Origin: Alphaproteobacteria bacterium
GTDB taxonomy: Bacteria > Pseudomonadota > Alphaproteobacteria > JAUHZY01
Assembly: GCA_030425825.1 (NCBI GenBank)
Contig: JAUHZY010000002.1
Coordinates: forward strand, 34,377 to 98,376
Direction of reading: 5' to 3'
Length of the DNA stretch: 64,000 bases
This document shows positions 27,211 through 43,999 of the stretch, piece after piece. Position 1 is the first letter of the stretch. Each line of letters begins with the position of its first letter. The position numbers were made by a program, and so were the translations under genes. Under the pieces are notes generated by a model. It made no database searches, was not told where the DNA came from, and worked only from the letters and a program-made list of their open reading frames with translations.

Positions 27211-27681
27211 TTATATTTCTGTATTCAATGTATAGCTTTGAGACCCTAATGCGCCAGGAGCTTGGTTTTGTGCATCAGAATATGTTGCACCTTTCGCAGT
27301 TTCACGTCGAATTGCTGTAATAATGGTATTCGCAACTCTTTCACTTGTTTTCTTTGTGATGTCCAGCAGCCTTGCATTCTCTTTAACCAGTTCGGCAAAT
27401 TCTTTTGATGCTATTTTTAGTTTTTCTTTTGACTCAGGTGCTATATTTCTAAAAAAGTCAGGGTTTTCACGTAAGAACTCAATATGTCCTTCGTAAATAC
27501 GCGAAAGACCAGTTTTCTTTTGTTGAATCAGTGCAATTTCTTCTGCTAGCCCTTCAGGCCTTGCGTTTAAAAGGTCTATTTCTTCGCTTAAAACATCACT
27601 GAGTTGATCAGTTATGCGTAAAAGCTCGTTTAAACGCACGCTTTGGGGGGTAGACTTTTCAGTATTTTGTACATGTTCCAT
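27211..27681 (-). CDS. FlgN-like flagellar export chaperone
   Basis: All-helical 156-aa protein (L..VL.EE..LL, K..L...YE, EN.RLL) directly after flgI-flgJ, the usual alphaproteobacterial position. Confidence 0.6.
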   Translation of the reverse strand: MEHVQNTEKSTPQSVRLNELLRITDQLSDVLSEEIDLLNARPEGLAEEIALIQQKKTGLSRIYEGHIEFLRENPDFFRNIAPESKEKLKIASKEFAELVKENARLLDITKKTSERVANTIITAIRRETAKGATYSDAQNQAPGALGSQSYTLNTEI

Positions 27682-27989
27682 TAAATTACCTCCTGATATC
27701 TTCTAAGGGATTGTTCAATTTGATCGCTTAAAGGGGATGTTTTTGAAAGACTAACAGCATATTCTTGCGTAGCCATAGACCTAAAAATATCTTGGCCATT
27801 AGAGTTGCCATAAAAACTATCTTCATTCACACTTTCAAACATTTTCTCAACCATCTGAGAGAGAAAAACAGCAGCAAATCCTTCAGAAGCCTCGCGAATT
27901 TTTGAAGCAGATGATTGTATTTTAGGTAGTGCTGCTTTGGGTTGGGTTGCTTGCTGTAGATGAAAGTTTGCACCAGAAATATCGTTCAT
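27681..27989 (-). CDS. flgJ: Short rod-binding FlgJ (no muramidase domain)
   Basis: A..F.AVFL.QM...MF, D.F.SM...EYA; 1-nt overlap with flgI. Confidence 0.8.
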   Translation of the reverse strand: MNDISGANFHLQQATQPKAALPKIQSSASKIREASEGFAAVFLSQMVEKMFESVNEDSFYGNSNGQDIFRSMATQEYAVSLSKTSPLSDQIEQSLRRYQEVI

Positions 27990-29053
27990 TACATCACCTC
28001 AATATCTGCTTGTAATGCGCCAGCTGCACGAATGCCTTGTAAAATTGAGATCAAATCTCTTGGCGAGATCCCCAAGGCATTTAATCCTTCTACAAGCTCA
28101 CTTAGGTTTACGCCTGTTTCAAGGATAGATATTTTCTTTTCAGGCCCTGCAGGCGCTGCGATTTCTTCTGGTTGTGGCGCTGCTTCGTTGACGGGTTGTT
28201 CGTTTCCTTTAACATTGACGGTTAGGTTTCCATGGGCAATAGCAACTTCGTCAATGCGGACAGCTTGCCCCATAACAACCATCCCTGTTTGGTCATCCAC
28301 TAAGACCCTGGCGGCTTGATCAGGCTGAACAGTGAGTTGCTCTACCATTGTTATAAAGCTAACAGGATTAGAATGGAACATATAGGGCAGTGTAAGTTCC
28401 ACAGTTCCTGGGTCAATAGATCTTGCCGTATCAATCCCAGTGGATGAGTTTATGACATCAGCCATGCGCTTTGATGTCGTGAAATCAGGGTTTTTGAGTG
28501 CTAGCTTAATAGACTTTAAGTTTGAAAAGTCAAAGGCAATTTCTTTTTCAATCAGTGCGCCATTAGAAATACGTGCAGCTGTTGGTACGGCCTTACCTTC
28601 ACCTTCTATTCCTTCAACTTTCAGGGATCCTTGTGCAATCGCGTAAACTTCCCCATCTGCGCCTAAAAGAGGCGTTACAAGCAATGTTCCGCCTTGTAAT
28701 GATCCAGCATCTCCAATTGTTGAAACGGTAACGTCTATTTTAGACCCCTGTCGTGAAAAGGCAGGAAGCGTTGCTGTTACAACCACGGCAGCGACATTTT
28801 TTGTTTTCAAGGTGTCATCTCTTGCGTTGACGCCAAGTCTATCTAGCATGCCAATCAGGCTTTCGCGCGTGAAAATAGATTTTGTGAGAGAGTCTCCACT
28901 ACCATTCAAACCAACAACAAGCCCATAACCGATGAGCATATTGTCTCGAACACCTTCTATATCAGCGATATCTTTGATCCGTGAAGAAGCATGAGTGTCT
29001 GCAGAAAATAAAATAAAGAGCAAGGAAAAAGAAAGGGTAAAAAAGGACTTCAT
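27989..29053 (-). CDS. flgI: Flagellar P-ring protein
   Basis: Signal peptide, RIKDI, N.LIGYGLVVGLNGSGD, SLQGGTLL.TPL, ILQ.I..AGALQA. Confidence 0.97.
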   Translation of the reverse strand: MKSFFTLSFSLLFILFSADTHASSRIKDIADIEGVRDNMLIGYGLVVGLNGSGDSLTKSIFTRESLIGMLDRLGVNARDDTLKTKNVAAVVVTATLPAFSRQGSKIDVTVSTIGDAGSLQGGTLLVTPLLGADGEVYAIAQGSLKVEGIEGEGKAVPTAARISNGALIEKEIAFDFSNLKSIKLALKNPDFTTSKRMADVINSSTGIDTARSIDPGTVELTLPYMFHSNPVSFITMVEQLTVQPDQAARVLVDDQTGMVVMGQAVRIDEVAIAHGNLTVNVKGNEQPVNEAAPQPEEIAAPAGPEKKISILETGVNLSELVEGLNALGISPRDLISILQGIRAAGALQADIEVM

Positions 29054-29092: not shown

Positions 29093-29108
29093 TGCATGAA
29101 GTATGCCA
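29093..29108 (-). promoter_or_regulatory. sigma54 (-24/-12) promoter of the flgI operon
   Basis: Minus strand TGGCATACTTCATGCA (GG-N10-GC), about 40 nt upstream of the flgI ATG. Confidence 0.75.
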
Positions 29109-29247
29109 ATATTCATAATTCTGGCATTATTGAAGAAATAAATTTAAAAACCCTCATTATCAACGCACCCTAGGCGGCGATCAATCTTATATAAGGAAGA
29201 GGTGGAGAAATATTCTTCATGTGAGGTTAAAATGTGACAGTTATTTT

Positions 29248-29682
29248 TTATGTGCACCAGCTTTGTCTTTTGCCGCCATTATATTTTTGTGCAAGGCCAC
29301 TTTTTATCATGACCTCAGAAACGTCGCTGGGGCCAACATGCGCATTTGCAATAATACGATTGCCGTATTTACCAAAGCTAATATTCGTCAGGACCAAGGA
29401 TTGTCCTTTTGTTAGCTTTTCCATTGTTTCTTTTGCCCGTTCAGCCAAGTCAATTTCACTTTGGCACTTTCCTTTGATTTCAGGTGTGTCAATATTTCTA
29501 AGGCGAACGCGTGTCACAACATCTTGCCCAAGCCAAACTTTTATCTTTGCCTCAAACGTATCGCCATCAATAACTTGTTTGACTGTCGCAATATAAGGAC
29601 CAGGGAGATATTCTTTTGCAAAGGCCATTTTTGCAAGAAGTACGAAAAAGGTTATTGTAATGATGATTTTAAAAGTCTTCAT
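29248..29682 (-). CDS. Secreted thermonuclease (SNase-like) family protein
   Basis: Signal peptide MKTFKII...AFA; VIDGDT, RVRLRNIDTPE, KYGNR; start ATG 29682 after AGGGA. Confidence 0.9.
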   Translation of the reverse strand: MKTFKIIITITFFVLLAKMAFAKEYLPGPYIATVKQVIDGDTFEAKIKVWLGQDVVTRVRLRNIDTPEIKGKCQSEIDLAERAKETMEKLTKGQSLVLTNISFGKYGNRIIANAHVGPSDVSEVMIKSGLAQKYNGGKRQSWCT

Positions 29683-29751
29683 ATAAAAATCCCTATACGT
29701 GTGTTGTTTTTCAATTATACACGCATAGAGTGCCATTATCAACCCTGCAAC

Positions 29752-30417
29752 TTAAAGTTTAATTTTATTCAGGAAATTAGATGCAGCATCTTGTTCAGCT
29801 TGCTTCTTTGAACGCCCTTTTCCTTTTGCAGGGGGGTAGTGCTCGATATTTACCTGAACGCAGAAAGTAGGTTCATGGTCTGGGCCAGATGTTTCTATTA
29901 ATTGGTATTCTGGTAAAGGCATAGAGTGAGACTGAACCCATTCTTGTAGAGTTGTTTTTGGATCGCTTGGAGGTGGAGATTGATTGCTTTCCAGGCATAG
30001 ATCTTTCCAATGCTCAAGAATAAATGAGGCCGCTGTTTTGATGTCACTATCAAGATAAATAGCGCCAATAATGCTTTCAATCATATCAGAGAAGTAAGAG
30101 TTGTAGCGTGCTTGTATATCTTCTTTCTTAATAGTCAAAATTTGAGGAAGTTCTATTTTTTCAGCAATTTTTACAAGCGCGTCTTGGCAAACAAGTGCAG
30201 CATGTCGTTTGGCGATATCACCTTCATTCTCGGCTTGAAAAGTGTTTAAAAGGTGTTCAGCAATAACGAGCCCCAAAACACGATCCCCAAGAAACTCTAA
30301 TCTTTCAAAACTTTTAAGAAGATTATCACCTTTGAGGGAAATGATAGCGTGCTTGAGAAGTGTTTTATTAACAAAATTGTAACCAATTTTCTTTTCAATT
30401 TCTGGGAAGTTGGCCAT
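29752..30417 (-). CDS. rnc: Ribonuclease III
   Basis: ERLEFLGD signature, D..ES.IGAIYLD, C-terminal dsRBD (DPKT.LQEW...G.SKK.AEQ.AA). Confidence 0.97.
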   Translation of the reverse strand: MANFPEIEKKIGYNFVNKTLLKHAIISLKGDNLLKSFERLEFLGDRVLGLVIAEHLLNTFQAENEGDIAKRHAALVCQDALVKIAEKIELPQILTIKKEDIQARYNSYFSDMIESIIGAIYLDSDIKTAASFILEHWKDLCLESNQSPPPSDPKTTLQEWVQSHSMPLPEYQLIETSGPDHEPTFCVQVNIEHYPPAKGKGRSKKQAEQDAASNFLNKIKL

Positions 30418-30427
30418 GATTTCCTTA

Positions 30428-31168
30428 TTAGTTAATCAGTTTCAAAAGTCTATATCCGCGAATGGAAGATGGAATATTTAAAGGGTTCCACCAGCTAACG
30501 TTGTTGTCAACAGAGAAGAAGATGATTTCTGCGCGTCCAATGAGGTTTTTGAAGGGCACGAAACCAACATGGCCTGATTCTGCACGGCTGTCTAAAGAGT
30601 TATCTCTATTGTCGCCCATAGCAAAGAAATGCCCTTCTGGCACAACAAAAATAGGTGTATTATCTAGGGGCCCGCGATCGGAGAATTCCATAATTTTGTG
30701 GCTTTCAGTATCGTCGGGGAAAGTTTCTAAATAAATAGAATATGACCCCCCAGAAATGATGCGTCTTTCAATTGCTTTATCATTGATATAAAGGATGCCT
30801 TTTTTAACTTGCACTTTATCGCCTGGAAGCCCGATGACACGCTTGATATAGTCAATTTTGTCGTCAGAAGGAAGCCTGAAAACAACAACATCACCACGTT
30901 TCGGTGTTGATCCAAAAAGCCTATCAGACAAGATATTAGGACTAAAAGGGAAAGAGTAGTTGCTATAACCGTACGAGAATTTAGAAACAAACAGATAGTC
31001 ACCAACAAGAAGTGAAGGCTCCATAGAACCTGATGGAATGTGAAAGGGCTCATAAAAGAACGTTCTAACCGTTAATGCAACAAGTGCAGCAATAAAAAGG
31101 GTCTTGATGTGGTCCATGAGAGATTCTGTTTTCTTCTCAGGTACTTTATCTGTTTTTTCTTCTGACAT
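30428..31168 (-). CDS. lepB: Signal peptidase I
   Basis: IPSGSM.P.L, DYIKRVIG, MGDNRDNSLDSR; probable start MSEEK at 31168. Confidence 0.97.
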   Translation of the reverse strand: MSEEKTDKVPEKKTESLMDHIKTLFIAALVALTVRTFFYEPFHIPSGSMEPSLLVGDYLFVSKFSYGYSNYSFPFSPNILSDRLFGSTPKRGDVVVFRLPSDDKIDYIKRVIGLPGDKVQVKKGILYINDKAIERRIISGGSYSIYLETFPDDTESHKIMEFSDRGPLDNTPIFVVPEGHFFAMGDNRDNSLDSRAESGHVGFVPFKNLIGRAEIIFFSVDNNVSWWNPLNIPSSIRGYRLLKLIN

Positions 31169-31169
31169 T

Positions 31170-31562
31170 TTATTGACCATGAATAATTGAAAAGGCTTGG
31201 GCGAAAGGGTACTCGTCTGTGATGGATATTTCAATTACAACTTCACTTTTGTTTGGGAAAAGCTCTTTAACAGAGGCGTGTGCTTTATCACTTAACAGGA
31301 TGATGGGTTTGCCCATTTTATCATGTGTCGTTGTGATGTCGAGAAAGCTGAAATATACACCGATCCCTGTTCCAAAAGCTTTTGATACAGCCTCTTTTGC
31401 TGCAAATTGTTTTGCATAACTTAAAAAAGAGTTCTCTTTTTTTGAGGAATATTTTTGTTCTTCATGGCTAAAGAGGCGATTAATGAACTTTGTGCCAAAC
31501 TGATTAATTGATTTTTCAAGTCGACGGCTGTCTACTAAATCTGTTCCAATCCCTAAAATCAC
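31170..31562 (-). CDS. acpS: Holo-[acyl-carrier-protein] synthase
   Basis: ILGIGTDLV, FAAKEAVSKAFGTG, ISITDE. Confidence 0.95.
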   Translation of the reverse strand: MILGIGTDLVDSRRLEKSINQFGTKFINRLFSHEEQKYSSKKENSFLSYAKQFAAKEAVSKAFGTGIGVYFSFLDITTTHDKMGKPIILLSDKAHASVKELFPNKSEVVIEISITDEYPFAQAFSIIHGQ

Positions 31563-31634
31563 GATGATAATACTTTCTAGACAATTTTCAAATAAGCGAT
31601 ATATTAGCGTCTTTAATGTTTAAGGAAAAGAAAA

Positions 31635-32735
31635 ATGGGATTTAAATGTGGAATTGTTGGCCTTCCGAATGTTGGTAAGTCAACTTTGTTTAACGCATTA
31701 ACATCAACGGCAACAGCCGAGGCTGCAAACTATCCGTTTTGTACGATTGAGCCGAATGTAGGGCGTGTTGCTGTTCCTGACGATCGTCTGAACAAGATTG
31801 TTGCAATTTCTAAGTCCGCCCAGGTTATCCCTACACAGCTTGAGTTTGTTGATATTGCTGGTTTGGTTAAGGGCGCCTCGAAAGGCGAGGGGCTTGGCAA
31901 CCAGTTTCTGGCTAATATTCGTGAAGTTGACGCGATTGTTCACGTTTTGAGATGCTTTGAAGACGGTAATATTACGCATGTTGAAGGTTCAGTAGACCCC
32001 ATACGTGATGCCGAAATCGTTGAAACAGAGCTTTTGATTGCAGATATGGAAAGCCTTGAAAAACAAAAACAACGCGTCGAAAAGCGCGCCAAAACAGGCG
32101 ATAAAGAATCGAAAGAAATTTTAAGTGTTGTTGAGAAGGTTCTACCAGTTTTACAGGATGGCCTTCCTGCCAGGACCGTTGAGCTAGAAGAAGAAGAGGA
32201 AAAGATTTGTGCATCGCTTTGCTTGATGACAAAAAAACCTATTCTTTATGTTTGTAATGTTGAAGAAGAAAATGCTGCTAATGGAAACTCTTTTAGTGAG
32301 AAGGTCAGTGAAAAAGCATCTTCAGAAAATGCAAAATCTGTTATTATCTCTGCATCGATAGAAGCAGAAGTATCAAGTCTTGAGTCGCAAGAAGAAAAAC
32401 TAGAGTTTTTGAAAGATTTAGGCCTTAGTGAAACCGGTCTTAGTCGCGTTATTCGTGCTGGCTATGAACTTTTAGGGTTGATTACTTTTTTCACAGTTGG
32501 TCCAAAAGAAGCGCGCGCATGGACTGTGCGCGAAAAGTCTACGGCGCCACAAGCCGCAGGTGTTATCCACACTGACTTTGAGCGTGGTTTTATTTGTGCT
32601 GATACCATGGCATATGATGATTTTATTTCTTGTGGTGGTGAGCAAGCAGCAAAAGAGCAGGGTAAACTGCGTCAAGAAGGGCGTGGATATATAGCAAAAG
32701 ATGGTGACATTTTTCACTTTAAATTTAACGTTTAA
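31635..32735 (+). CDS. ychF: Ribosome-associated ATPase YchF
   Basis: GIVGLPNVGKSTLFN, NYPFCTIEPN, DIAGLV.GAS.GEGLGN, IHTDFERGFI. Confidence 0.98.
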   Translation: MGFKCGIVGLPNVGKSTLFNALTSTATAEAANYPFCTIEPNVGRVAVPDDRLNKIVAISKSAQVIPTQLEFVDIAGLVKGASKGEGLGNQFLANIREVDAIVHVLRCFEDGNITHVEGSVDPIRDAEIVETELLIADMESLEKQKQRVEKRAKTGDKESKEILSVVEKVLPVLQDGLPARTVELEEEEEKICASLCLMTKKPILYVCNVEEENAANGNSFSEKVSEKASSENAKSVIISASIEAEVSSLESQEEKLEFLKDLGLSETGLSRVIRAGYELLGLITFFTVGPKEARAWTVREKSTAPQAAGVIHTDFERGFICADTMAYDDFISCGGEQAAKEQGKLRQEGRGYIAKDGDIFHFKFNV

Positions 32736-35700
32736 ACAACCATGATTCCATCAAGCCAGATATTATAACCTTCTGCAACAGCAAAAGAACGCAGGTCTGA
32801 TACACCGCCTAGAGGGGCAAGACCTGTTTGGTTAACAATCCTGATATTCTGCATGCCTGCACCTAAATTAGCTAAGTCATCCATTTTTATTTCAAATTCT
32901 GTTCCACCGCCATTGACGCTGACAACAAAGCCAACTGCACTGATTGAATATGAACCGCCCCCAAGATTTAAGGAAGATTCATTGAGGTATGAAATATATA
33001 GTATGTCGCCACCGGCTCTTGAGAAGTCAACAATGACATCATTTCCATCACCTACAAGTGACAAGAAAAGATTATCGTATGATTGTCCACCATTAACATT
33101 TATCAAGTCATACTCAAAATGGAATTGGTCTCCGCCTGTTCCGCCATACAACATATCATCGCCGCTATTTCCGTGTATAAAGTCACTACCAGAGTTACCA
33201 TAGAGAATATCGCTACCATCATTGCCAGAAATAAAGTCAGCTCCACTGCCACCAATAATGCTGTCGTTATCATTGTTACCTAAAAGGCTATCGTTTCCGT
33301 CGTCGCCAATAATAGTATCATCGCTATTATCACCAAGTATTGTGTCATTTCCTGCATCTCCACTGATGCTGTCTTCATCATTACCACCACGAATGGAGTC
33401 TGCACCGCTGCCACCAAAAATCGTGTCATCATCATCATCACCAATAATGGTATCATCATCATCACCACCTAAAATACTGTCACGACCACTGCCGCCATCT
33501 ATGGAGTCATTTCCTGAACTTCCGAACAATGTGTCACCACCGCCATCACCAAATAGTGTATCGTCATCATCACCACCATCAAGTGTGTCATCTCCGCTGT
33601 CGCCACCTAGAGAATCATCTCCTGTATTCCCAGCGATGGAGTCATCATCATCCCCGCCATAAAGGGTATCATTTCCTGTTTCACCGGAGATTGTATCATC
33701 ACCGCTGCCACCATTCATTGTGTCATCACCACTACCACCAAGAAGCGTATCATCTCCTGTATCACCAAAGACAGTGTCAAAGCCTGTGTCGCCGTCTAAT
33801 GAGTCATTTCCTGTGCCGCCTCTGATAGAATCCTCATTTGTGCCGCCACCAATTGTGTCATTTCCATCGCCACCATAAAGGGTATCATTTCCATCATCCC
33901 CTTCAATGCTATCATCTCCTGATCCGCCATCAATTGTATCTTGACCGCTGCTACCATCAATCGTGTCATCTCCACTATCGCCATTAATCGTGTCGTCACC
34001 GTCGTCACCGTCTAAGGTATCATTAGCGCTGTTTCCTTGAATAATATTGCTAGCTGTGTTCCCAAACCCATGTTGTGATCCTGTGCTTAGGTAAAGGTCT
34101 TCAATGTCATAGGTTGCTGTGATATTTCCAAGTGTTGCGGAGGTTATGCCCGCTACAACAAGTGCATCTCTTGTGCCTTCACCAGTTAATTCAGTAATAT
34201 TGTCTGTTCCTGAGTTGTCAGCGAAATATGAGTCATTTCCGATACCACCAATAAGCTCTTCTGTTCCGCTGCCACCATTTAGGAAGTCATTTCCGCTGCC
34301 ACCAAGTAATGTGTCATCACCCGATCCACCATTGAGGGTGTCATCACCACTTTGGCCAAGAACGGTGTCATCACCATCTTCACCGCTTAGTGTGTCGTCA
34401 CCATCATCGCCAATAATTGTGTTGTCTCGATCATTCCCGATGAGTTCTAGGTTAGTTCCAACATTAGCGATAATCCATTCAACATAGTCAGCACGTGTTA
34501 ACGCATCAAAGTTGACAGATGCATAGATGCTATCTGTTCCTTCTGCTGCAATTTCAACAATATTTGTGCCACTGTGACCAACATAATAAATGTCGTCATT
34601 CGCACCACCAACCATAGATCCTGCACCTACATTTGATCCAATAAAGGTATCATCGCCAATGCCGCCAATAAGTGTGTTGCTGTTAATTGAGCCATCAAGG
34701 TAATCGTTGCCAGAATTACCGTAAAGGAAGTCTTGTCCACTTGCGCCATAAAGCGAGTCATCACCAGATCCACCATAAGTGGTGTCATCACCAGATCCGC
34801 CATGAAGCGTATCATCGCCTGACTCTCCAGAAATAAGATCATTCCCATCATCACCTAAAACAGAATCGTCACCAATACCAGCATAGACAGAGTCATCAGC
34901 CTCAAGCGCATTTAATACATTATCTTCGTCATTCCCAATAATTGTGTTGGCAAGGTCATTTGCTGTTCCTGTTGTGGCTGTTCCTAGCAATCTCAAACCT
35001 TCAATACGTGGGCTGTTTGTAAGAACACTCAGGTCTATATTGCCATATGACCAAACTTCATCATTCCCACCACCTGCGGTGTCAGTGATCGTGAAGGTTT
35101 TTGAGGGATCAATAATATAAATATCGTCACCAAGGTCACCAATCAGTGTATTTGTTCCAGACATTGCATAGAAGGTGTCATTCCCCCATCCACCAACAAG
35201 TGTATTTACCCCACTATTCCCATCAAGGACGTCATTTCCTGTTGATCCATAAAGGCTGTCGTCATTACTGCCACCATATAATGTGTCGTCATCTTCTCCA
35301 CCGTCTATTGTGTCGTCACCGTCGCCACCAAAAACAGTATCATCGCCAGACCCACCATCTACAGTGTCATCACCGCTATGTCCTAAAACAGTGTCGTCAC
35401 CGCTGTCACCACCAACAGTATCGTCGCCAGACCCACCATAAAGAGTATTGTCTTCTGAGTTTCCTGTGATCATGTTGTCGCCATCATTACCGATACCGAT
35501 GATCCCGTTTCCAAGAAGTGTTAGGTTCTCAATATTAGAAATTGAAGAAAGGTCATAGTCTTGATTAATGGCTTGAACTTCGTCTGTTCCTTCACCAACA
35601 TTTTCTGAGAAGGTGTCTGTCGCAGCACCATTTATGATGTAGGTGTCATCGCCATTGCCGCCAAGAAGGGAGTTAGTTCCACCACCTCCAAACAAGGTGT

Positions 35701-38700
35701 CATTTCCAATGCCGCCAAGTAACGTATCATTTTCATCACCACCATAAAGGCTATCATCACCGTCATCTCCGTAAAGAGTGTCATCGCCAGACCCACTGTA
35801 GACAGTGTCATCACCAGATCCGCCGCTTAAGGTGTCATTTCCGCTGCTGCCACTTATCTCGTCATTTCCACTGTCACCTTCAATATGGCTGTCACCTGTT
35901 TGTCCAAGGATATAGTCATCCCCAATACCGCCAAGAAGGGTGTCATTCCCATCGCCACCAAGGAGTGTGTTGTCGCCATCAACAGCTGAAATATAATTAT
36001 CTAAATCATTTCCTGTAACAGTATGATTTCCTGTGCCCAGTAAGAAAACATTTTCGATTTGTAGTAATGCTGCCGTTGTCAAATCAACATCAGTATCTGT
36101 CGCTTCGATTGTGTCATTACCTGCTAGTTCAACAACCGTATCACCCGCATTATCAAACACGTAATAGTCATCACCAGAATTACCAATCAGAAGGTCAGAT
36201 CCACTACCGCCATCAAGCGTATCATTTGCACTTCCTGCAACGATTGTATCAGTGCCAGAACCCCCATCAAAAGAGTTGTTCCCTGATGTTCCGTAGAGGG
36301 AGTCGTCGCCCGTTCCTCCTCCTAAAGTGTCATCACCACTGCCGCCATGAAGTGTGTCATCATCATCATTGCCTTCCAATGTGTCATCGCCATCATCACC
36401 AGAAATATGATCATTTCCTGTGTTGCCTCGCAAAACATTGTCTAAAGCGTTTCCGAAAATGTTGTTGTCATAACTATTTGCCGTTGCATCAGTCGCTGTT
36501 CCAAGCAAAACAATGTTTTCAACTTCTTCATCGCTGGCGCCTCCTGAAAGGTTAATATCAGAATAGGCATAAACAACGTCTGTTCCTTCGCCAACACCTT
36601 CTTGGATCAGGAGTCCACCAGCAGGGTCAACATAATATGTGTCATTACCATCACCGCCATCAAGTGTGTTGTCACCATTCAATCCATAAAGAACATCTTC
36701 GCCAGACCCGCCATCAAGTGAGTCGTCACCGCTGTCACCATTAAGAGTATCATCACCGCTGCCACCAAAAACGGTGTCATCTGCACTGTCTCCACTTAAG
36801 GAGTTGTCTTCATCATTTCCTGTGATGATATTGTTGACTTCATTTCCTCTTCCGCTGATACCCGTGCCCAGAAGCGTTAAGTTTTCAATGTCCTCACCAC
36901 CAACAAGTGTATAGCTTGAGTTGATGACTTGAACTTCGTCTGTTCCTTCGCCAGGGTTCTCAGAAAAGCTGTTTGTTGCAGAGGGGTCGATAACATAAAC
37001 ATCATCACCAATGCCGCCAACCAGTGAGTTTATACCAACATCACCGATGAGTGTATCGTCGCCAACATCACCGATGAGTGTGTCGTTGTCACCACCACCA
37101 ACAAGAGAATCATTCCCTGTCGAGCCATCAAGCGTATTGTTTCCTGATCCACCATAAAGCGAGTCATCATCTTCACCACCATCAAGTGTATCATCTCCTG
37201 CGCCTGCAGATAAAACGTCATCACCTGTTCCGCCATGTGCTGTGTCGTTGCCGCTGCCACCTAATATAGAGTCATCATTTTCACCGCCCTCTATACTATC
37301 ATCACCATCATTGCCATCTAAGGTATCTTCACCTGTTCCACCACCAAGCGTGTCATTGCCATTTCCACCATCTAGTGTGTCATCGCCCTCATTCCCATCA
37401 AGCGTGTCATTGCCATTTCCACCGTCCAGTGTATCGTCGCCGTCATTCCCATCAAGCGTATCATCGCCGTCATTCCCATTAATCCAATCTTCATCGACTC
37501 CACCAACACCGCTGTCATCACCGCTGTCACCATAAATTGTATTGTTTCCTGATCCACCGAGTATTGTATCATTCCCAGAACCACCGCCTACACTGTCATC
37601 GCCACTGCCACCCATAACAGAGTCATCATCATCACCGCCGCCAAGTGTATCATCGCCTGTTTGTCCATAAAGGGTGTCGTCACCGCTGCCTCCGCTGCCG
37701 CTGTCATCACCGCTGCCACCAAAGATAGTGTCATCATCGTCTCCACCATCTAGTGTGTCATCACCTGTATTTCCAAAAATAGTATCATTTCCGCTGCCAC
37801 CGCCTAGGTTGTCATCACCTGTTTCTCCAAAAACAGAATCATTGCCTGATCCACCACGTAAGCTGTCATCGCCTGTTTGTCCGGAGACCGTGTCGTTGCC
37901 GTTGCCACCGTCTAATGTATCATTCCCATCGCCACCATAGACAGTATCGTCGCCACCTCCTCCTGTGCCAGAATCATTACCTGATCCACCATCAAGGGTA
38001 TCGTTATCTTCACCCCCGTCTAGATAGTCATTCCCAGTGCCACCATCCAGATAATCATTGCCTGATCCACCAGAAACATAATCATTACCCGCTTGGCCAA
38101 GAACAGAATCAATACCATCTTGCCCATCAAGTGTGTCGTTCCCAATACCACCACCTAGCGTGTCGTTATCACCGCCACCTAATAGGATATCATTCCCTGT
38201 ATTTCCTTCGACGCTATCATTTCCATCACCGCCCTGGAGGCTATCGTCACCATCTTCGCCACTTACACTGTCATTACCCGATCCACCGTCAAGTGTATCA
38301 TCACCAGACTTACCGCTGAGTGTATCTTCGCCTGAACCACCAAGGCCAGAATCATCCCCAGAGCCGCCATCAAGTGTGTCATTTCCATTGCCGCCATCAA
38401 GTGTGTCATCATCATTTCCACCATCAAGCGTGTCATTTCCATCGCCACCATCAAGAGAGTCATTTCCGCTCTCTCCTTCAAGTGTGTCATTTCCTGACCC
38501 GCCATCAAGAGTATCATCGTCGTCATCACCTAGGAGGCTATCTTCACCTGTGTTTCCTGACTCATAGTCATTCCCAGAACCGCCATGCAAAGTATCATCA
38601 TCTTCACCACCTTCAAGCGTGTCATTTCCGCTGTCACCAGACAGTGTATCTTCGCCTTCATTTCCTTGGATAGAGTCGTCGTCGTCATTCCCCATCAGGC

Positions 38701-41284
38701 TGTCATCATCTTCACCACCTAGAATGGTGTCATCTCCGTCGCCTCCTGATCCTGTGTCATTACTACTATGTCCAAGGATAAGGTCGTCACCACTTTCTCC
38801 TAGAAGGCTGTCTTCACCGCTGTCACCTTTTAGTGTGTCTTCATCGTCACCACCAAAAAGAGTATCGTCACCGCTGTCGCCGCTGACACAATCGTTCCCT
38901 GATCCACCATGAAGATTGTCATCTCCACTACCACCCAAAACGTCATCATTGCCTGATCCACCGTCAAGAGAGTCACTGCCTGTGCCGCCTTCTAAGACAT
39001 CATTTCCATTACCGCCAAGAAGAGTATCTTCTCCTGTGTTACCTTTTACAGTATCGTCACCATCACCACCATTTGCGCTATCATCACCGCTGCCGCCGAT
39101 GACACTGTCATTCCCACTGCCGCCATCTAGTGTGTCGTCACCATCATTTCCAAAAACGGTGTCATTCCCACTGTCTCCATTGCCGTAATCATCCCCAGAG
39201 TTTCCTTCAAGTGTGTCGTCGCCATCGCCACCACGCACGGTATCATCACCATCATTTCCTGATACGGTATCGTTCCCTGATCCGCCATCCAGTGTGTCAT
39301 CGCCAGTTGCACCTGATAACGTGTTATCTCCAGAGTTTCCTCTAATAGAGTTGTCATCTTCGTTTCCGGTGCCTGTATAGTTAGAAGAACCAAGTAGCGT
39401 AAGGTTTTCGAAGTTATTTGTTAAGGTATAGTCGTTGGCAATTTGGATTTCATCCGTGCCACTATTGATGTTTTCCTGAATGATGTCGCTGATATCAATG
39501 ATGTAAACATCATTTCCTGCGCCACCTGCCAAGGTATCGTTACCATCACCACCATCTAAAGTATCATTTCCTGCACCACCGATAAGAGAGTCTTGACCCT
39601 CATCGCCAACAAGAGAATCATCATCATTGCCACCATCCAGTGTGTCATCGCCGTCACCACCAAGAAGCGTGTCTTCGCCGTCTTCACCGATAACAGAATC
39701 GTTTCCACGACGAGCATTCACAAGATCATCACCAGAAAGTGCCGAAACGACATCATTTCCATTGCCGATGTTTAGTGTATCATCATTTGATGTTCCTACG
39801 ACCGTTGAGTCAGGGTCAGTGTTATCGAGTGTGATGTTGTAGTTATAATTTGCGCGTAATTCAGTCAAGTTTGCTGCGTCAAAGTCAGCACTGGCTATTT
39901 TTTGGTCACGCAGCCTCACAGCTTGGGCGCCACCTTGACCGGATATATGAAGAACAATGTCATCACCATCAGCCTCAACAGAAATAAGATCACTGTCATA
40001 AAAATCAAAAGTGCCATCGCCAAGCTGTACGGTTCTTGCATTTCCTATGTGTAAAACAAGCGCATCATTTTCATAGTCAAAATCAAGGATAAGATCACTA
40101 CCATCACCAGAAATATCATCAAGGTTGCTAATGTCACTATCAGAAACAAAATCTGACATATCATATTCAAACCTGAAAAGATCCTGGTCTTTCCCACCCA
40201 GCAGTGTGTCATTTCCTGCGCCACCGATAAGAGAGTCTTGCCCTTTATCTCCTTGAACCCAATCGTTGCCGTCGCCACCTAGCAGTGTGTCATGATCTTT
40301 TCCACCAATAATGAGGTCATTTCCATCGCCACCATCAAGGCTGTCATTGTCTTGTCCGCCCAGCAAGCTATCATGGCCAAGGCCACCCAATAACGTGTCA
40401 TTCCCAAAGCGCCCTTGGATAATGTCGTGATCAGCACCGCCGTCGGCAAAGTCATCACCAATATCACCAATGATACTGTCGTTGCCACCATCCCCTAGTA
40501 GAGAGTCGTCGTCTTTTCCGCCGCGAAGCGTATCCGATCCATTGCCGCCTAAGACAGTGTCTTGTCCTACATTTCCTTGCAGGTAGTCATTGCCTGTTTC
40601 TCCGTCTAGAAAATCGGCGCCATCTCCGCCAGACTGAATATCTTTTCCGTCGCCGCCACGAAGCGTGTCTCCGTCTTTATCGCCAAAAATAAGGTCATTG
40701 CCGCTATTGCCGTCGATGATGTCGCTGCCTTTTCCGCCACGAATTTTATCATCATCATCACCGCCTTGGATTGAGTCATTGCCGCGGTTTCCTTGCAGAT
40801 AATCTTTTCCTTCTCCACCTTCCACAGTGTCGTTATCGCCGCCACCGTAAATTGAGTCTTTGCCTTTGTTTCCTCTTAGGATGTCATCTCCAGCATTGCC
40901 AAAAATAATATCATTGCCATCGCCGCCATTAAGCTCGTCATCGCCGTCATCGCCATAAATTTGGTCGCCATATTTTCCGCCGTTTAAGGTGTTTTCATCC
41001 AAGTCTTCAAAAACGTCACTTGTGTTGTCGCCAACCAAAAGCTGCGTCCCATTTGCGAAGACAACACTTGGCTGCGTTCCTTCGCCAACAATAGCTTGCA
41101 GTGTGAGGTTGGGGATGAAAAGGCTGCCAATGTTTTTGACAACGAAAAGAGAGCCGTTTTCATTGGGATAAACAGTAACTTCTGAAGCTGTCACATTCGT
41201 TAGGTCAAGAATATCTTCTAGCGGATCAAATCCCAAGACAAGCCAAGGGTTTGCTACAGCAGATGTGAAAAGAATAGTCGACAT
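32732..41284 (-). CDS. Giant (2850 aa) RTX/hemolysin-type Ca-binding repeat protein, probable type I secretion substrate
   Basis: Very many GGxGxDxLx nonapeptides, Asp/Gly-rich, no signal peptide, eight spacer modules and non-repeat terminal domains. Confidence 0.92.
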   Translation of the reverse strand: MSTILFTSAVANPWLVLGFDPLEDILDLTNVTASEVTVYPNENGSLFVVKNIGSLFIPNLTLQAIVGEGTQPSVVFANGTQLLVGDNTSDVFEDLDENTLNGGKYGDQIYGDDGDDELNGGDGNDIIFGNAGDDILRGNKGKDSIYGGGDNDTVEGGEGKDYLQGNRGNDSIQGGDDDDKIRGGKGSDIIDGNSGNDLIFGDKDGDTLRGGDGKDIQSGGDGADFLDGETGNDYLQGNVGQDTVLGGNGSDTLRGGKDDDSLLGDGGNDSIIGDIGDDFADGGADHDIIQGRFGNDTLLGGLGHDSLLGGQDNDSLDGGDGNDLIIGGKDHDTLLGGDGNDWVQGDKGQDSLIGGAGNDTLLGGKDQDLFRFEYDMSDFVSDSDISNLDDISGDGSDLILDFDYENDALVLHIGNARTVQLGDGTFDFYDSDLISVEADGDDIVLHISGQGGAQAVRLRDQKIASADFDAANLTELRANYNYNITLDNTDPDSTVVGTSNDDTLNIGNGNDVVSALSGDDLVNARRGNDSVIGEDGEDTLLGGDGDDTLDGGNDDDSLVGDEGQDSLIGGAGNDTLDGGDGNDTLAGGAGNDVYIIDISDIIQENINSGTDEIQIANDYTLTNNFENLTLLGSSNYTGTGNEDDNSIRGNSGDNTLSGATGDDTLDGGSGNDTVSGNDGDDTVRGGDGDDTLEGNSGDDYGNGDSGNDTVFGNDGDDTLDGGSGNDSVIGGSGDDSANGGDGDDTVKGNTGEDTLLGGNGNDVLEGGTGSDSLDGGSGNDDVLGGSGDDNLHGGSGNDCVSGDSGDDTLFGGDDEDTLKGDSGEDSLLGESGDDLILGHSSNDTGSGGDGDDTILGGEDDDSLMGNDDDDSIQGNEGEDTLSGDSGNDTLEGGEDDDTLHGGSGNDYESGNTGEDSLLGDDDDDTLDGGSGNDTLEGESGNDSLDGGDGNDTLDGGNDDDTLDGGNGNDTLDGGSGDDSGLGGSGEDTLSGKSGDDTLDGGSGNDSVSGEDGDDSLQGGDGNDSVEGNTGNDILLGGGDNDTLGGGIGNDTLDGQDGIDSVLGQAGNDYVSGGSGNDYLDGGTGNDYLDGGEDNDTLDGGSGNDSGTGGGGDDTVYGGDGNDTLDGGNGNDTVSGQTGDDSLRGGSGNDSVFGETGDDNLGGGSGNDTIFGNTGDDTLDGGDDDDTIFGGSGDDSGSGGSGDDTLYGQTGDDTLGGGDDDDSVMGGSGDDSVGGGSGNDTILGGSGNNTIYGDSGDDSGVGGVDEDWINGNDGDDTLDGNDGDDTLDGGNGNDTLDGNEGDDTLDGGNGNDTLGGGTGEDTLDGNDGDDSIEGGENDDSILGGSGNDTAHGGTGDDVLSAGAGDDTLDGGEDDDSLYGGSGNNTLDGSTGNDSLVGGGDNDTLIGDVGDDTLIGDVGINSLVGGIGDDVYVIDPSATNSFSENPGEGTDEVQVINSSYTLVGGEDIENLTLLGTGISGRGNEVNNIITGNDEDNSLSGDSADDTVFGGSGDDTLNGDSGDDSLDGGSGEDVLYGLNGDNTLDGGDGNDTYYVDPAGGLLIQEGVGEGTDVVYAYSDINLSGGASDEEVENIVLLGTATDATANSYDNNIFGNALDNVLRGNTGNDHISGDDGDDTLEGNDDDDTLHGGSGDDTLGGGTGDDSLYGTSGNNSFDGGSGTDTIVAGSANDTLDGGSGSDLLIGNSGDDYYVFDNAGDTVVELAGNDTIEATDTDVDLTTAALLQIENVFLLGTGNHTVTGNDLDNYISAVDGDNTLLGGDGNDTLLGGIGDDYILGQTGDSHIEGDSGNDEISGSSGNDTLSGGSGDDTVYSGSGDDTLYGDDGDDSLYGGDENDTLLGGIGNDTLFGGGGTNSLLGGNGDDTYIINGAATDTFSENVGEGTDEVQAINQDYDLSSISNIENLTLLGNGIIGIGNDGDNMITGNSEDNTLYGGSGDDTVGGDSGDDTVLGHSGDDTVDGGSGDDTVFGGDGDDTIDGGEDDDTLYGGSNDDSLYGSTGNDVLDGNSGVNTLVGGWGNDTFYAMSGTNTLIGDLGDDIYIIDPSKTFTITDTAGGGNDEVWSYGNIDLSVLTNSPRIEGLRLLGTATTGTANDLANTIIGNDEDNVLNALEADDSVYAGIGDDSVLGDDGNDLISGESGDDTLHGGSGDDTTYGGSGDDSLYGASGQDFLYGNSGNDYLDGSINSNTLIGGIGDDTFIGSNVGAGSMVGGANDDIYYVGHSGTNIVEIAAEGTDSIYASVNFDALTRADYVEWIIANVGTNLELIGNDRDNTIIGDDGDDTLSGEDGDDTVLGQSGDDTLNGGSGDDTLLGGSGNDFLNGGSGTEELIGGIGNDSYFADNSGTDNITELTGEGTRDALVVAGITSATLGNITATYDIEDLYLSTGSQHGFGNTASNIIQGNSANDTLDGDDGDDTINGDSGDDTIDGSSGQDTIDGGSGDDSIEGDDGNDTLYGGDGNDTIGGGTNEDSIRGGTGNDSLDGDTGFDTVFGDTGDDTLLGGSGDDTMNGGSGDDTISGETGNDTLYGGDDDDSIAGNTGDDSLGGDSGDDTLDGGDDDDTLFGDGGGDTLFGSSGNDSIDGGSGRDSILGGDDDDTIIGDDDDDTIFGGSGADSIRGGNDEDSISGDAGNDTILGDNSDDTIIGDDGNDSLLGNNDNDSIIGGSGADFISGNDGSDILYGNSGSDFIHGNSGDDMLYGGTGGDQFHFEYDLINVNGGQSYDNLFLSLVGDGNDVIVDFSRAGGDILYISYLNESSLNLGGGSYSISAVGFVVSVNGGGTEFEIKMDDLANLGAGMQNIRIVNQTGLAPLGGVSDLRSFAVAEGYNIWLDGIMVV
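37351..37458 (-). repeat. Near-identical 54-bp tandem duplication inside the RTX gene
   Basis: tgtcattgccatttccacc.tc.agtgt.tc.tcgcc.tcattcccatcaagcg occurs twice in tandem. Confidence 0.75.
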
Positions 41285-41330
41285 TTATTTCCCAACAGCA
41301 ATGACTTAATAACAATGACGCATATAAATA

Positions 41331-41346
41331 TGCAGGAATTGTGCCA
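41331..41346 (-). promoter_or_regulatory. sigma54 (-24/-12) promoter of the giant RTX gene
   Basis: Minus strand TGGCACAATTCCTGCA (GG-N10-GC), about 47 nt upstream of ATG 41284. Confidence 0.75.
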
Positions 41347-41419
41347 AATTTCTTGCTTGAGCTTTGTTTTTAACCAGTTTAAGACTTTTATAATGAGAAA
41401 AAGAATAGGAAGGCGTTAA

Positions 41420-42160
41420 ATGAAGCAAGAGAGCTTGGTGTTAGGCGATAAGAAAATAGCATATTGTCAGTCAAAAGGTGCGTTGCCAGGTGTCATTTTT
41501 CTTGGTGGATTTCAATCCAATATGCAAGGAACAAAAGCATTGGCTTTAGAGCAATATTGTATGGAAAGAAACCATTCTTTTTTGAGATTTGATTATCGGG
41601 GCCATGGAGAGTCTTCAGGAGATTTTCTGGAATGGTCAATTGGTGAGTGGTTGGACGACGCCATTGATGTTTTTGATCACTTAACAAAAGGGCCTCAAAT
41701 TCTAATTGGATCAAGTATGGGGGCATGGATTATGTTGCATCTTGCTTTGCGAAGAAAGCAGCGTATTCAGGCGTTAATAGGGGTTGCCTCTGCGCCTGAT
41801 TTTACACAAAAGCTGATGTGGGATATTTTTTCAGAACAGCAGAAAGAAGACCTTCGAAAAAACGGTTTTGTTGAGATGCCTAATGATTATGACGATCAAC
41901 ATTATCGTATCACAAAAAAGCTAATCGATAATGGTAAAAAGTATCTTTTGTTAGATAAGAAAATAGATTTAGAGTGCCCTGTAAGGTTGATTCACGGGGT
42001 GAAAGACAAAGACGTTCCTTGGTCGTTTTCAACATGTTTATCAGAAAATATAACCTCTAAAGATGTTGAAGTTATTTTACTCGAAAATGGTGATCATCGA
42101 TTGTCTGATCCACTGAGTCTTGATAGGATAACTGAAACGTTAGGACAACTTCTGATATGA
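41420..42160 (+). CDS. Alpha/beta hydrolase (ABHD10-like)
   Basis: RFDYRGHG, GSSMG nucleophile elbow, HG..D..VP, GDHRLS. Confidence 0.9.
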   Translation: MKQESLVLGDKKIAYCQSKGALPGVIFLGGFQSNMQGTKALALEQYCMERNHSFLRFDYRGHGESSGDFLEWSIGEWLDDAIDVFDHLTKGPQILIGSSMGAWIMLHLALRRKQRIQALIGVASAPDFTQKLMWDIFSEQQKEDLRKNGFVEMPNDYDDQHYRITKKLIDNGKKYLLLDKKIDLECPVRLIHGVKDKDVPWSFSTCLSENITSKDVEVILLENGDHRLSDPLSLDRITETLGQLLI

Positions 42161-42675
42161 TAAATAAAAAATTGCCGGTTTATACGCTGGCGTATATTTT
42201 TTCCATTTTCTTTATTAATTGGGGCTTCGTATTTTTTCCAACATTTGAATTGTCGAATGGCACCCCTTGGGCACCTTTCACAATTGTTGTTGGTCTTGTT
42301 TTTATCATACGAGACTTCGCTCAGCGTGAGATAGGTCATTATGTCTTGATTGCGACGTTGATCGGATGTGTTTTGGCCTATTTAACATCCGATCCAGGTG
42401 TGGCAATTGCAAGTGCTGGTGCATTTTTAATCAGTGAAGTTGTTGATTGGGGTGTTTACAGTTTTACAGGTAAAACATTGGCGCAAAGAATATTGATTTC
42501 TAGTGCTGTTGCAACACCTGTTGATACAACTTTTTTCTTGTGGGCAGTGGCGTATTTTTCTCCTGATATTGATGTTGGGGGAGTGTTCCATCTTTTCTCT
42601 ATTTTTGTTATGACAGCAAGCAAGATGATTGGCGCAATCGCTGTTTATTTTATGATAAAAAACAAGCCAAATTGA
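42157..42675 (+). CDS. VUT-family (YhhQ-like, putative queuosine-precursor) membrane transporter
   Basis: Hydrophobic; F..RDFAQREIG, AIAS..AFLISE..DW.VY, P.DT..F; ATGA overlap with the hydrolase gene. Confidence 0.8.
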   Translation: MINKKLPVYTLAYIFSIFFINWGFVFFPTFELSNGTPWAPFTIVVGLVFIIRDFAQREIGHYVLIATLIGCVLAYLTSDPGVAIASAGAFLISEVVDWGVYSFTGKTLAQRILISSAVATPVDTTFFLWAVAYFSPDIDVGGVFHLFSIFVMTASKMIGAIAVYFMIKNKPN

Positions 42676-42677
42676 TT

Positions 42678-42693
42678 TGGCACGTTTTTAGCA
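42678..42693 (+). promoter_or_regulatory. sigma54 (-24/-12) promoter of the flagellin gene
   Basis: TGGCACGTTTTTAGCA (GG-N10-GC), about 32 nt upstream of ATG 42725. Confidence 0.75.
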
Positions 42694-42724: not shown

Positions 42725-43999
42725 ATGGTTGGTGGTATTCAACTTTCAACATTGTTAAGAAATAGTATTTTGAGTCGTGCGCAGGTTCAAGAGCAACTTT
42801 CTATTGTTGACCAACGCCTTCAAACAGGTGAAAAAGTAAATGACTTATTTGATAACCCTGCCGTTTTCTTTAAAGCGCAGTCTTTGTCAAAAGACGCAGC
42901 TGTTATGCTTCAGCGCAAAACAGAAATAGATCAAGGAATTAGCGCGCTAAAGGTGACAACAGATTCTATTGGACGCATTGAAGAAATGGTTGAAGGTATC
43001 AAGGGCCTTGCAGAGGAGGCAAAAAACCTGCCTGTTGATCAACGAGGTCATTTACAAAAACAAGCTGTCGCATTGGCGCAAGAGATTGATAAATATGCCG
43101 TTGATGCGAGCTATAATGGTGTGAACTTGCTCACAGGGGATGGTCGCCTATATGGTCCAGAACTTGTCTCAAATGGCAGCTTTGAAGATGGCGTGAATGG
43201 TTGGAGTGGTGGTGGAACACCTTCTGCGGCAATTATTGATGGATTGACCGCGGCAAATGTTGTTGATGCCGATGCGAGTAATAGAGACGGCATATTGCAG
43301 GCGGTTAACTTGACGTCAGGGAGTAATTATCTTATTTCGGGGCTTGCACAAAAATCAGATGTGAATCCAGCTGCAGGAACCCTTGACTTGGGAATATATT
43401 TTGGGTTGGGATTTAATACAACACCTAATCAAGAGGTTACTTTGTCTAATTATAATAACTGGGAAGAGTATGAGTTTGAATTCACGGCAGGGGGACAAAA
43501 TTCATTTTTCCAAATGTTCCCAACACGTTACAATAACCCACATACAGGAGAAGCATATTTTACACAAACCTCTGTGCGTGAGGTTGAATCTGATCCAACA
43601 TTTGAAGATACATTGACGATAAATTATTCAGACAGTGAAACGCGTACAATCAGCAGTGTTGATTTAAGAGCGCGCGCCTTGGGTATTTATAATGGTGAAA
43701 TTAATTTTTCTTCACAAGCTAATCTAGAAGCAACAATAGCACGTGTTGAAACAGCACTTGATACGATTGATGCAACAATGGATAATTTTTCAATAGAGTT
43801 TTCAGTCTTTCAACAAAGATTACAAATGACAGAGGTGCTTATTAATACAGCGCAAGAAGCAGAAAACAAGTTGATTGCTGCTGATATAACAGAAGAAGCA
43901 GCAAACAAACTTGCCCTGGAAACAAGAGATCAGTTGGTCATGGAGACACTGTCACTTGCAGCAAGTGCTCAGCGCAGCATAGTGTCATTGTTGGGCTAG
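42725..43999 (+). CDS. Flagellin with inserted carbohydrate-binding-module-like domain
   Basis: Flagellin N-terminus (RLQTGEKVN..FDNP..FF.A; DASYNGVNLL) and C-terminus (ADITEEAAN.LAL.TR.QL...LSLA...Q.SIVSLL); insert at residues ~144-287 runs ELVSNGSFE..W...SVREV. Confidence 0.85.
   Translation: MVGGIQLSTLLRNSILSRAQVQEQLSIVDQRLQTGEKVNDLFDNPAVFFKAQSLSKDAAVMLQRKTEIDQGISALKVTTDSIGRIEEMVEGIKGLAEEAKNLPVDQRGHLQKQAVALAQEIDKYAVDASYNGVNLLTGDGRLYGPELVSNGSFEDGVNGWSGGGTPSAAIIDGLTAANVVDADASNRDGILQAVNLTSGSNYLISGLAQKSDVNPAAGTLDLGIYFGLGFNTTPNQEVTLSNYNNWEEYEFEFTAGGQNSFFQMFPTRYNNPHTGEAYFTQTSVREVESDPTFEDTLTINYSDSETRTISSVDLRARALGIYNGEINFSSQANLEATIARVETALDTIDATMDNFSIEFSVFQQRLQMTEVLINTAQEAENKLIAADITEEAANKLALETRDQLVMETLSLAASAQRSIVSLLG

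Follow-up and report, generated by a model that had tools for sequence, protein, structure and literature searches.

Can the gene of a giant RTX protein be wired into the regulon that builds the flagellum? The question is raised by a 64,000-nucleotide stretch of an alphaproteobacterial genome (Alphaproteobacteria bacterium, GenBank assembly GCA_030425825.1, contig JAUHZY010000002.1, positions 34,377 to 98,376 of the forward strand; hereafter the window), in which the same type of GG-N10-GC element stands before flgI, before a flagellin gene with a carbohydrate-binding insert (CBM-flagellin) and before a gene for an RTX protein of 2850 amino acids (aa; RTX2850). The original prediction took these elements for sigma-54 promoters, assigned the RTX gene to the late flagellar regulon and suggested that the RTX protein and the flagellin could form a joint sheath or attachment system. 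From the sequence of the whole genome we consider it rather likely that the three motifs are RpoN -24/-12 promoters of a late flagellar regulon of the Caulobacter type, that this regulon also holds three RTX genes, and that it is fired via FlbD and FliX. The regulatory part of the prediction is well supported at this level, while the structural part is unsupported.

Predicted sigma-54 promoter elements in the window and in the genome

The three elements lie where they had been placed, on the strands and in the orientation claimed; the scores given here are those of the generic matrix described below, and distances are in nucleotides (nt).

29093-29108, minus strand: TGGCATACTTCATGCA, which probably serves the flgI operon as a sigma-54 promoter; score 14.1; 39 nt to the ATG; predicted transcription start (+1) at about 29082
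41331-41346, minus strand: sigma-54 (-24/-12) promoter of the 2850-aa RTX gene, TGGCACAATTCCTGCA; score 17.2; 46 nt to the ATG; predicted +1 at about 41320
42678-42693, plus strand: sigma-54 promoter of the CBM-flagellin gene, TGGCACGTTTTTAGCA; score 16.9; 31 nt to the ATG; predicted +1 at about 42704

The two doublets are exactly 10 nt apart in all three sites, as in the extended TGGCAC-N5-TTGCW consensus, and the idea of one promoter type for flgI, RTX and flagellin is supported. Even the looser pattern TGGCA-N8-GCA is over-represented in the window, with 8 occurrences as compared to 3.24 expected, a number that none of 100 shuffled sequences reached.

In order to place these motifs in a wider context, the genome (1.95 Mb, 41% GC, 11 contigs, 99% complete, 1826 called genes) was scanned with a sigma-54 position weight matrix. 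All GG-N10-GC sites were scored, 832 of them reaching at least 10, and a site was called eligible if it was non-coding, correctly oriented and at most 300 nt from a start codon, which holds for 3.4% of strand positions. The eligible sites were distributed over the score bins as follows.

Score 10-12: 6 eligible among 500 sites
Score 12-14: 8 eligible among 232 sites
Score 14-16: 4 eligible among 76 sites
Score 16 or more: 11 eligible among 24 sites

The eligible share climbs steeply with the score, and in the top bin 11 eligible sites are found where 0.82 would be expected (binomial P = 1.3e-10). The motifs of the window thus belong to a genome-wide promoter set. The eligible sites scoring at least 16 precede the following genes.

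flgE, at the head of a flgE-flgK-flgL-like operon
A second flgE
flgF
The CBM-flagellin gene of the window
A LamG-type flagellin gene
nrdB (score 18.0), followed 11 nt on by two flagellins, flbT and flaF
rpoN (score 18.5)
An orphan gene for an acidic 300-aa protein (score 18.0)
Three RTX genes, of 2850, 1352 and 449 aa (RTX2850, RTX1352 and RTX449)

Lower-scoring eligible sites are found before flgI and fliK (14.1 each) and a third flgE (12.8), and an element of identical sequence, CGGCACGTATTTGGCA, is present three times, each copy leading a further flagellin array. Taken together, flgE in its three copies, flgF, flgI, fliK and the flagellin arrays all stand behind sigma-54-type sites. The other 13 of the 24 sites scoring at least 16 lie inside genes and are presumably due to chance. 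Four of these top-scoring sites, located within the coding sequence of the upstream gene, can serve as a control: they precede genes for a Cys/Met pyridoxal phosphate enzyme, a SprT-like protein, an Ala_racemase_N-domain protein and an ArsC-family protein, i.e. housekeeping genes, and this is the expected look of chance sites.

The RTX genes are prominent in this set. There are 12 RTX paralogs in the genome; the best upstream score is between 16.0 and 18.5 for RTX2850, RTX1352 and RTX449 and at most 9.4 for the remaining nine. An upstream site scoring at least 16 is found before 3 of the 12 RTX genes and before 12 of the 1814 other genes (Fisher P = 9e-5), and the RTX2850 promoter ranks 9th among the 1826 genes by best upstream site. 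The second RTX paralog of the window had been said to have no such promoter; this is correct (best upstream score 1.8), and the statement generalises to nine of the twelve.

An independent 28-nt matrix was trained on nine sites that stand before flagellar genes here, RTX sites being left out, and the genome was rescanned. The RTX2850 site scored 26.2, which is third overall, the best of all sites outside the training set and above seven of the nine training sites. The other sites followed at 20.9 (nrdB), 19.5 (RTX1352), 19.3 (rpoN) and 16.8 (RTX449), and the best 14 sites of this matrix are all intergenic and correctly oriented. The sites before an ATP-synthase b-subunit gene (15.9 with the generic matrix) and before the orphan gene (18.0) are treated as uncertain because they fall outside the top 40 of the flagellar-trained matrix. 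In the 14-16 bin, two of the four eligible sites precede flagellar genes (flgI and fliK), while the other two precede the ATP-synthase b-subunit gene and a false open reading frame (ORF) within 16S rRNA; the latter, which had been labelled 'unk98', was discarded as a false positive of the ORF caller.

Several sites deserve a separate comment. rpoN itself (G000:C2:667347-668828) has a consensus sigma-54 site (score 18.5) 92 nt upstream, at G000:C2:668921-668936 on the minus strand, which suggests autoregulation of rpoN, positive or negative. In the region G000:C2:1341206-1346918 the order is nrdA, the nearly palindromic site TGGCATGCAAGTTGCA (18.0), nrdB and then, after 11 nt, the genes of two canonical flagellins that are short (273 and 289 aa), with flbT and flaF behind them. 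It seems that a sigma-54 flagellin operon here includes a ribonucleotide reductase subunit; alternatively, the palindrome TGGCATGCAAGTTGCA is the binding site of another factor. The orphan acidic protein of 300 aa (G000:C2:435796-436698, minus strand) has an S/Q-rich N-terminus and no Pfam or NCBIfam family. Its Atlas feature matches, which are leads only, point to a DUF5610 cluster (0.94), a FliK-family cluster (0.88) and a cluster of the Cj0814 flagellar-dependent secreted protein (0.87); the protein may be one that the flagellar export apparatus carries out of the cell. The three flgE paralogs, each with a sigma-54-like site upstream, are full-length (497, 502 and 504 aa). A further high-scoring element of the window, TGGCACTTCTTTTGCT at 18386-18401 on the minus strand (score 16.8), lies antisense within a series of short plus-strand ORFs (about 15-19 kb) that we take for ribosomal-protein genes; as a promoter candidate it was set aside as a chance site.

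RpoN, FlbD and FliX as probable regulators of the promoter set

A sigma-54 reading depends on the presence of the sigma factor, and the genome does encode a complete RpoN with AID, CBD and DBD domains. The sigma-54 holoenzyme opens DNA only with the help of an ATPase activator that carries the GAFTGA loop. The Sigma54_activat family has five matches in the genome, two of them strong; the other three, to proteins of 864, 505 and 431 aa, score less than 27 bits. One of the strong matches is an orthologue of FlbD (443 aa), in which the loop is intact ('HEKGAFTGA') and for which the NCBIfam model NF050807 is the best by far (732 bits, E = 2.5e-220). When compared with the regions that match FlbD in genomes titled Caulobacter, Phenylobacterium, Hyphomonadaceae, Paracaedibacteraceae and Sneathiella, the protein shows 57-62% identity, and the product of the adjoining gene reads, by inspection of its sequence rather than by a family search, as a MotA-type stator protein. 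The other strong match is NtrX (557.6 bits), in which the GAFTGA stretch is deleted. FlbD is therefore the only one of the five matches with a GAFTGA loop. Its partner FliX is present as well (PF10768, 110.7 bits), and both flbD and rpoN, the regulators named in the original prediction, are at hand. FliA (sigma-28) was not recovered: the two matches to TIGR02479 (106 and 75 bits, in frames of 694 and 318 aa) are below the cut-off of 189.6.

In the mechanism that we propose, the regulon would comprise hook, rod, P-ring, hook-length and flagellin genes, with three of the twelve RTX genes recruited in addition. FlbD, as the sole GAFTGA-bearing activator, would be the only route by which its sigma-54 promoters could fire. 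In Caulobacter, FliX holds FlbD inactive until early flagellar (basal-body) structures have been assembled, as stated in section 2.4 of PMC3930126 and in PMC3096577. FliX would act in the same way in this organism, holding FlbD back until the early basal body is complete, and the RTX genes would then be switched on with the late flagellar genes. Because FlbD is the only competent activator and FliX its checkpoint, every functional sigma-54 promoter, including those of the RTX genes, should fire with the late flagellar genes, and the cell probably makes these RTX proteins only while or after it builds a flagellum, not before. They would leave the cell through a single PrtD/HlyD/TolC type I system, itself without a sigma-54 site. 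FlbD dependence, timing, type I secretion and surface function of the RTX proteins are in this sense what we infer, while the motifs, their enrichment over the genome, the genes they stand before and the presence of rpoN, flbD and fliX are read directly from the sequence.

The original prediction that RTX2850 is wired into the late flagellar regulon thus stands as regards its promoter, which is among the best matches of the genome and equal to those of late flagellar genes, and as regards the available activator. The wiring itself would be the most economical reading of the sequence, because FlbD is the sole activator with a GAFTGA loop. The accompanying idea of a stage-specific alternation between RTX paralogs is a conjecture.

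A number of points weigh against this explanation. The genes were called by a crude longest-ORF caller of our own, and the generic matrix takes its frequencies from the published consensus. By its score alone the flgI site is not strong evidence, since its bin (14-16) holds 4 eligible sites among 76 where 2.6 are expected. The FlbD match is 18 bits below the NCBIfam equivalog cut-off of 750. A shared upstream activator motif, comparable to the ftr element of Caulobacter, did not stand out above controls in k-mer, dyad and palindromic expectation maximisation (EM) searches of 15-16 upstream regions: the search for k-mers of 7-9 nt returned the promoter itself only, the 4+4 dyad search gave a best P of 1e-4 before correction with all dyads AT-rich, and the EM search gave T/A tracts only, slightly over controls that include coding DNA. 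The promoters of RTX2850, RTX449 and the flagellin have almost no non-coding DNA upstream, therefore any enhancer would have to sit in the neighbouring coding sequence. No RTX gene is found among the 18 annotated peaks of FlbD chromatin immunoprecipitation sequencing (ChIP-seq) in Caulobacter (PMC4083442, Supplementary Data 3). Finally, the 25 related genomes used for comparison are all of the same class and none is of the same family, and a strict consensus pattern gave 11 sites in five distant relatives, none of them before an RTX-like ORF with GxGxD repeats. When metagenomes were scanned with the flagellin, all matches were distant, 27-50% identical over short segments, at 11 loci.

RTX proteins, flagellins and rival explanations

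The 12 RTX paralogs range from 449 to 3816 aa and amount together to 21,005 aa, about 3% of the genome. C-terminal modules are common to all twelve proteins and an N-terminal module is present in eleven; RTX1352 has a different N-terminus of 298 aa. The first 70 or so residues of RTX2850 align with the N-termini of ten paralogs, which confirms its start codon. RTX2850 carries tandem GGxGxD nonapeptide repeats (97 GxGxD motifs), and the Pfam scan of the protein found only HemolysinCabind, with no lectin domain and no run of Ig-like extender or ligand-binding domains. By the same result the RTX genes are additions to the regulon and not flagellar components. The non-repeat pieces that were scanned match no family, Pfam has none for the shared terminal modules, the N-terminal module falls only into unnamed Atlas clusters, and this module gave a single weak match (E = 6e-4) in 400 other genomes sampled from the class; it appears almost confined to this genome. 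We found no features that set the three sigma-54-linked RTX proteins apart from the other nine. As possible roles of RTX2850 we consider a surface coat, a fibril or an adhesin. Type I secretion is represented by one complete, unlinked system, whose components are all above the cut-offs (TIGR01842, PrtD-type ABC transporter, 637.9 bits; TIGR01843, HlyD, 399.7 bits; TIGR01844, TolC, 293.5 bits), and none of its genes is preceded by an eligible sigma-54 site scoring at least 12.4. LapG (Peptidase_C93, PF06035) has no match at E <= 0.01 in this 99% complete genome, and because it was not found RTX2850 is, by this criterion, not a retained adhesin of the LapA/FrhA type.

The genes of the window that concern us here are the following.

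27211-27681, minus strand: 156-aa protein, stop/start overlap with the Rod-binding gene; no Pfam or NCBIfam family
27681-27989, minus strand: Rod-binding (FlgJ N-terminal type) protein, start overlapping the flgI stop; Pfam Rod-binding, E = 2e-8
27989-29053, minus strand: flgI, flagellar P-ring protein; Pfam FlgI, E = 1.7e-122
32732-41284, minus strand: 2850-aa RTX beta-roll protein, monocistronic, convergent with ychF; 74 Pfam HemolysinCabind stretches
42157-42675, plus strand: 172-aa membrane protein between the hydrolase and the flagellin; sub-threshold match to Vut_1 (vitamin uptake transporter), E = 0.011
42725-43999, plus strand: 424-aa flagellin with a CBM_4_9 insert as outer domain; Pfam Flagellin_N 19-138, CBM_4_9 146-258
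59955-63680, plus strand: 1241-aa protein, the second RTX paralog, which has both shared terminal modules; no sigma-54 site (best upstream score 1.8)

The gene of the 156-aa protein is probably part of the same operon as flgI and the Rod-binding gene. The C-terminus of the CBM-flagellin (residues 298-423 of 424) is matched by NCBIfam flagellin models. At 42666-42681 on the plus strand a 6-bp hairpin, GCCAAATTGATTTGGC, is followed by a T-run; it shares letters with the stop codon of the membrane-protein gene before it as well as with the TGGC in the -24 element of the flagellin, and has the look of a terminator-like element that is fused with the flagellin promoter. The other two sigma-54-linked RTX genes have different surroundings: RTX1352 (G000:C2:1529314-1533372) lies between glnA, downstream on the same strand, and the divergent cydAB, and RTX449 is set among non-flagellar genes. 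The flagellins form a large family, with 13 Flagellin_N matches in the genome, ten of which are in open frames of 427-617 aa; those long frames that were scanned carry Laminin_G_3, CBM_4_9 or beta-propeller (Lactonase) inserts. Three flgE genes and 13 Flagellin_N matches are an unusual number for a genome of 1.95 Mb.

It could be argued that the motifs before the RTX genes are functionless chance matches. More than half of the top-scoring sites (13 of 24) are inside genes and presumably arose by chance, and the non-coding DNA is AT-rich here while the -12 half of the motif is T-rich. However, chance would put only about 0.8 sites at eligible positions and 11 were found there, and the RTX genes, 12 of the 1826 called genes, account for 3 of these 11. 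The capture of a promoter by duplication of one segment was also considered and rejected: the upstream regions show no extended similarity (blastn-short gave only the known flagellin leader repeats), and therefore the three RTX sites are not copies of one duplicated segment. We regard chance as a very improbable explanation. A less improbable one, though still unlikely, is that the RTX sites do bind sigma-54 but escape the flagellar checkpoint, either through another activator or signal (e.g. NtrY/NtrX or an unrecognised one) or with a closed complex that blocks a housekeeping promoter of low strength; in that case RTX expression would not follow flagellar assembly, or would run inversely to it. 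The regulon has non-flagellar members (rpoN, nrdB and the orphan gene), RTX1352 and RTX449 have the non-flagellar neighbours described above, the searches did not find a shared FlbD-type enhancer, and in some bacteria sigma-54 sites before rpoN serve negative autoregulation. But NtrX is without the GAFTGA loop needed for contact with sigma-54, FlbD alone has this loop while the three further activator matches are weak, and the RTX2850 site is closer to the flagellar sites, by the trained matrix, than most flagellar sites are to each other. As regards occlusion, the minus strand of the 135-nt region between the RTX2850 start and the divergent hydrolase gene contains no sigma-70-like match, i.e. 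no such promoter was detected that the RTX2850 site could occlude.

The remaining alternative goes further than regulation and takes RTX2850 and the CBM-flagellin as parts of one structure of the motile cell, be it a sheath, a filament coat or a joint attachment organelle. The two genes have the same predicted promoter class and are only 1.4 kb apart, and in this genome lectin-like modules appear to have been exchanged between RTX proteins and the outer domains of flagellins: residues 138-296 of the flagellin, its CBM_4_9 part, share 45% identity (E = 5e-36) with a segment (G000:C2:514220-514705) of a 2383-aa RTX protein, a likeness that we read from the sequences as module exchange. This exchange gives no connection between RTX2850 and the filament. 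No sigma-54 site precedes the gene of the 2383-aa protein (best score 5.7), and RTX2850 itself has, by Pfam, beta-roll repeats only and no lectin domain. Moreover, the RTX2850 and CBM-flagellin genes are independent units on opposite strands with the hydrolase and membrane-protein genes between them, and the other two sigma-54-linked RTX genes are not near flagellar genes. Flagellins exit via the flagellar export channel and RTX proteins via the type I system, with no link seen here between these routes, which also counts against a common structure. Nothing that we found links the two proteins, so this part of the original prediction was not borne out, and we consider a joint structure quite improbable. 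The explanation that we prefer remains a late flagellar regulon, under FlbD and FliX, that includes three RTX genes.

Comparison with known flagellar and adhesin systems

It is instructive to compare this regulon to the FlbD/FliX/sigma-54 class III-IV hierarchy of Caulobacter crescentus. The regulators are the same, i.e. an FlbD orthologue, FliX and RpoN with no FliA, and the -24/-12 promoters are found before the same classes of targets, namely flgI, flgF, the flgE/flgK operon and flagellins. In Caulobacter the 18 annotated FlbD ChIP-seq peaks include fljK, fliF, flaN, flgI, fljL and flgF, and there is a weak peak at cydA (PMC4083442, Supplementary Data 3); that cydAB lies beside RTX1352 is probably a coincidence. 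The differences are that three RTX genes, rpoN and the nrdB-flagellin operon carry the promoter here, that FlbD is the only competent activator here whereas Caulobacter also has TacA and NtrC, and that no ftr-like enhancer could be identified here.

As regards the coupling of a large RTX protein to the flagellum, the closest precedent, by analogy, would be FrhA of Vibrio cholerae. PMC6890996 describes FrhA as a large, type-I-secreted RTX adhesin (hemagglutinin) whose transcription is under the flagellar hierarchy; frhA behaves like other class 4 genes in this respect, and its expression requires FliA and the diguanylate cyclase CdgD, although by an unclear route. In contrast, the RTX genes described here carry the sigma-54 promoter themselves, and there is no FliA. 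FrhA is one of the adhesins under LapD/LapG control, while no LapG family protein was found here, and RTX2850 consists of beta-roll repeats only by Pfam.

FleQ of Pseudomonas sets adhesins against motility, whereas the canonical -24/-12 promoter found here predicts that RTX and flagellar genes are activated together. This flagellar master regulator, which belongs to the sigma-54 activator class, also governs the giant RTX surface proteins LapA/MapA, and both FleQ and adhesin retention are linked to cyclic di-GMP, according to PMC5026340 and bioRxiv 10.1101/2023.05.09.540025; in P. fluorescens FleQ acts on adhesins post-transcriptionally, by the title of the latter source. Flagellins with co-opted outer domains provide one more parallel: the CBM_4_9 domain is likewise placed between conserved N- and C-terminal helices, with the difference that here flagellins share a promoter class with RTX proteins. 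In the limited collection of literature that was searched we found no description of an RTX gene that stands directly behind a promoter of the sigma-54 or FlbD kind.

Large surface adhesins tied to the flagellar hierarchy have precedents in Vibrio (FrhA) and, of a different kind, in Pseudomonas (FleQ/LapA), with links that are indirect or unclear. If our reading is true, the link in this organism is a plain -24/-12 promoter with one checkpoint-controlled activator as the only sigma-54 trigger, which would be unusually clean and testable: a single mutation, in flbD, in fliX or in the GG doublet, should silence three RTX proteins, for which the nine other paralogs provide internal controls. It is conceivable, though we hold it only tentatively and think it on balance doubtful, that sigma-54 has been reduced to a single-activator FlbD/FliX system whose checkpoint directly switches on a subset of RTX genes, so that in this poorly sampled alphaproteobacterial lineage the motile cell would have an RTX coat different from that of the non-motile cell, together with filaments decorated by lectin domains exchanged with the same RTX family, a co-regulated 'adhesive swimmer' programme. 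The regulon as we read it would also stand for a minimal sigma-54 regulon able to take up non-flagellar cargo, and it would give a regulatory context for a lineage in which RTX proteins take up about 3% of the genome and flagellin-like genes number 13.

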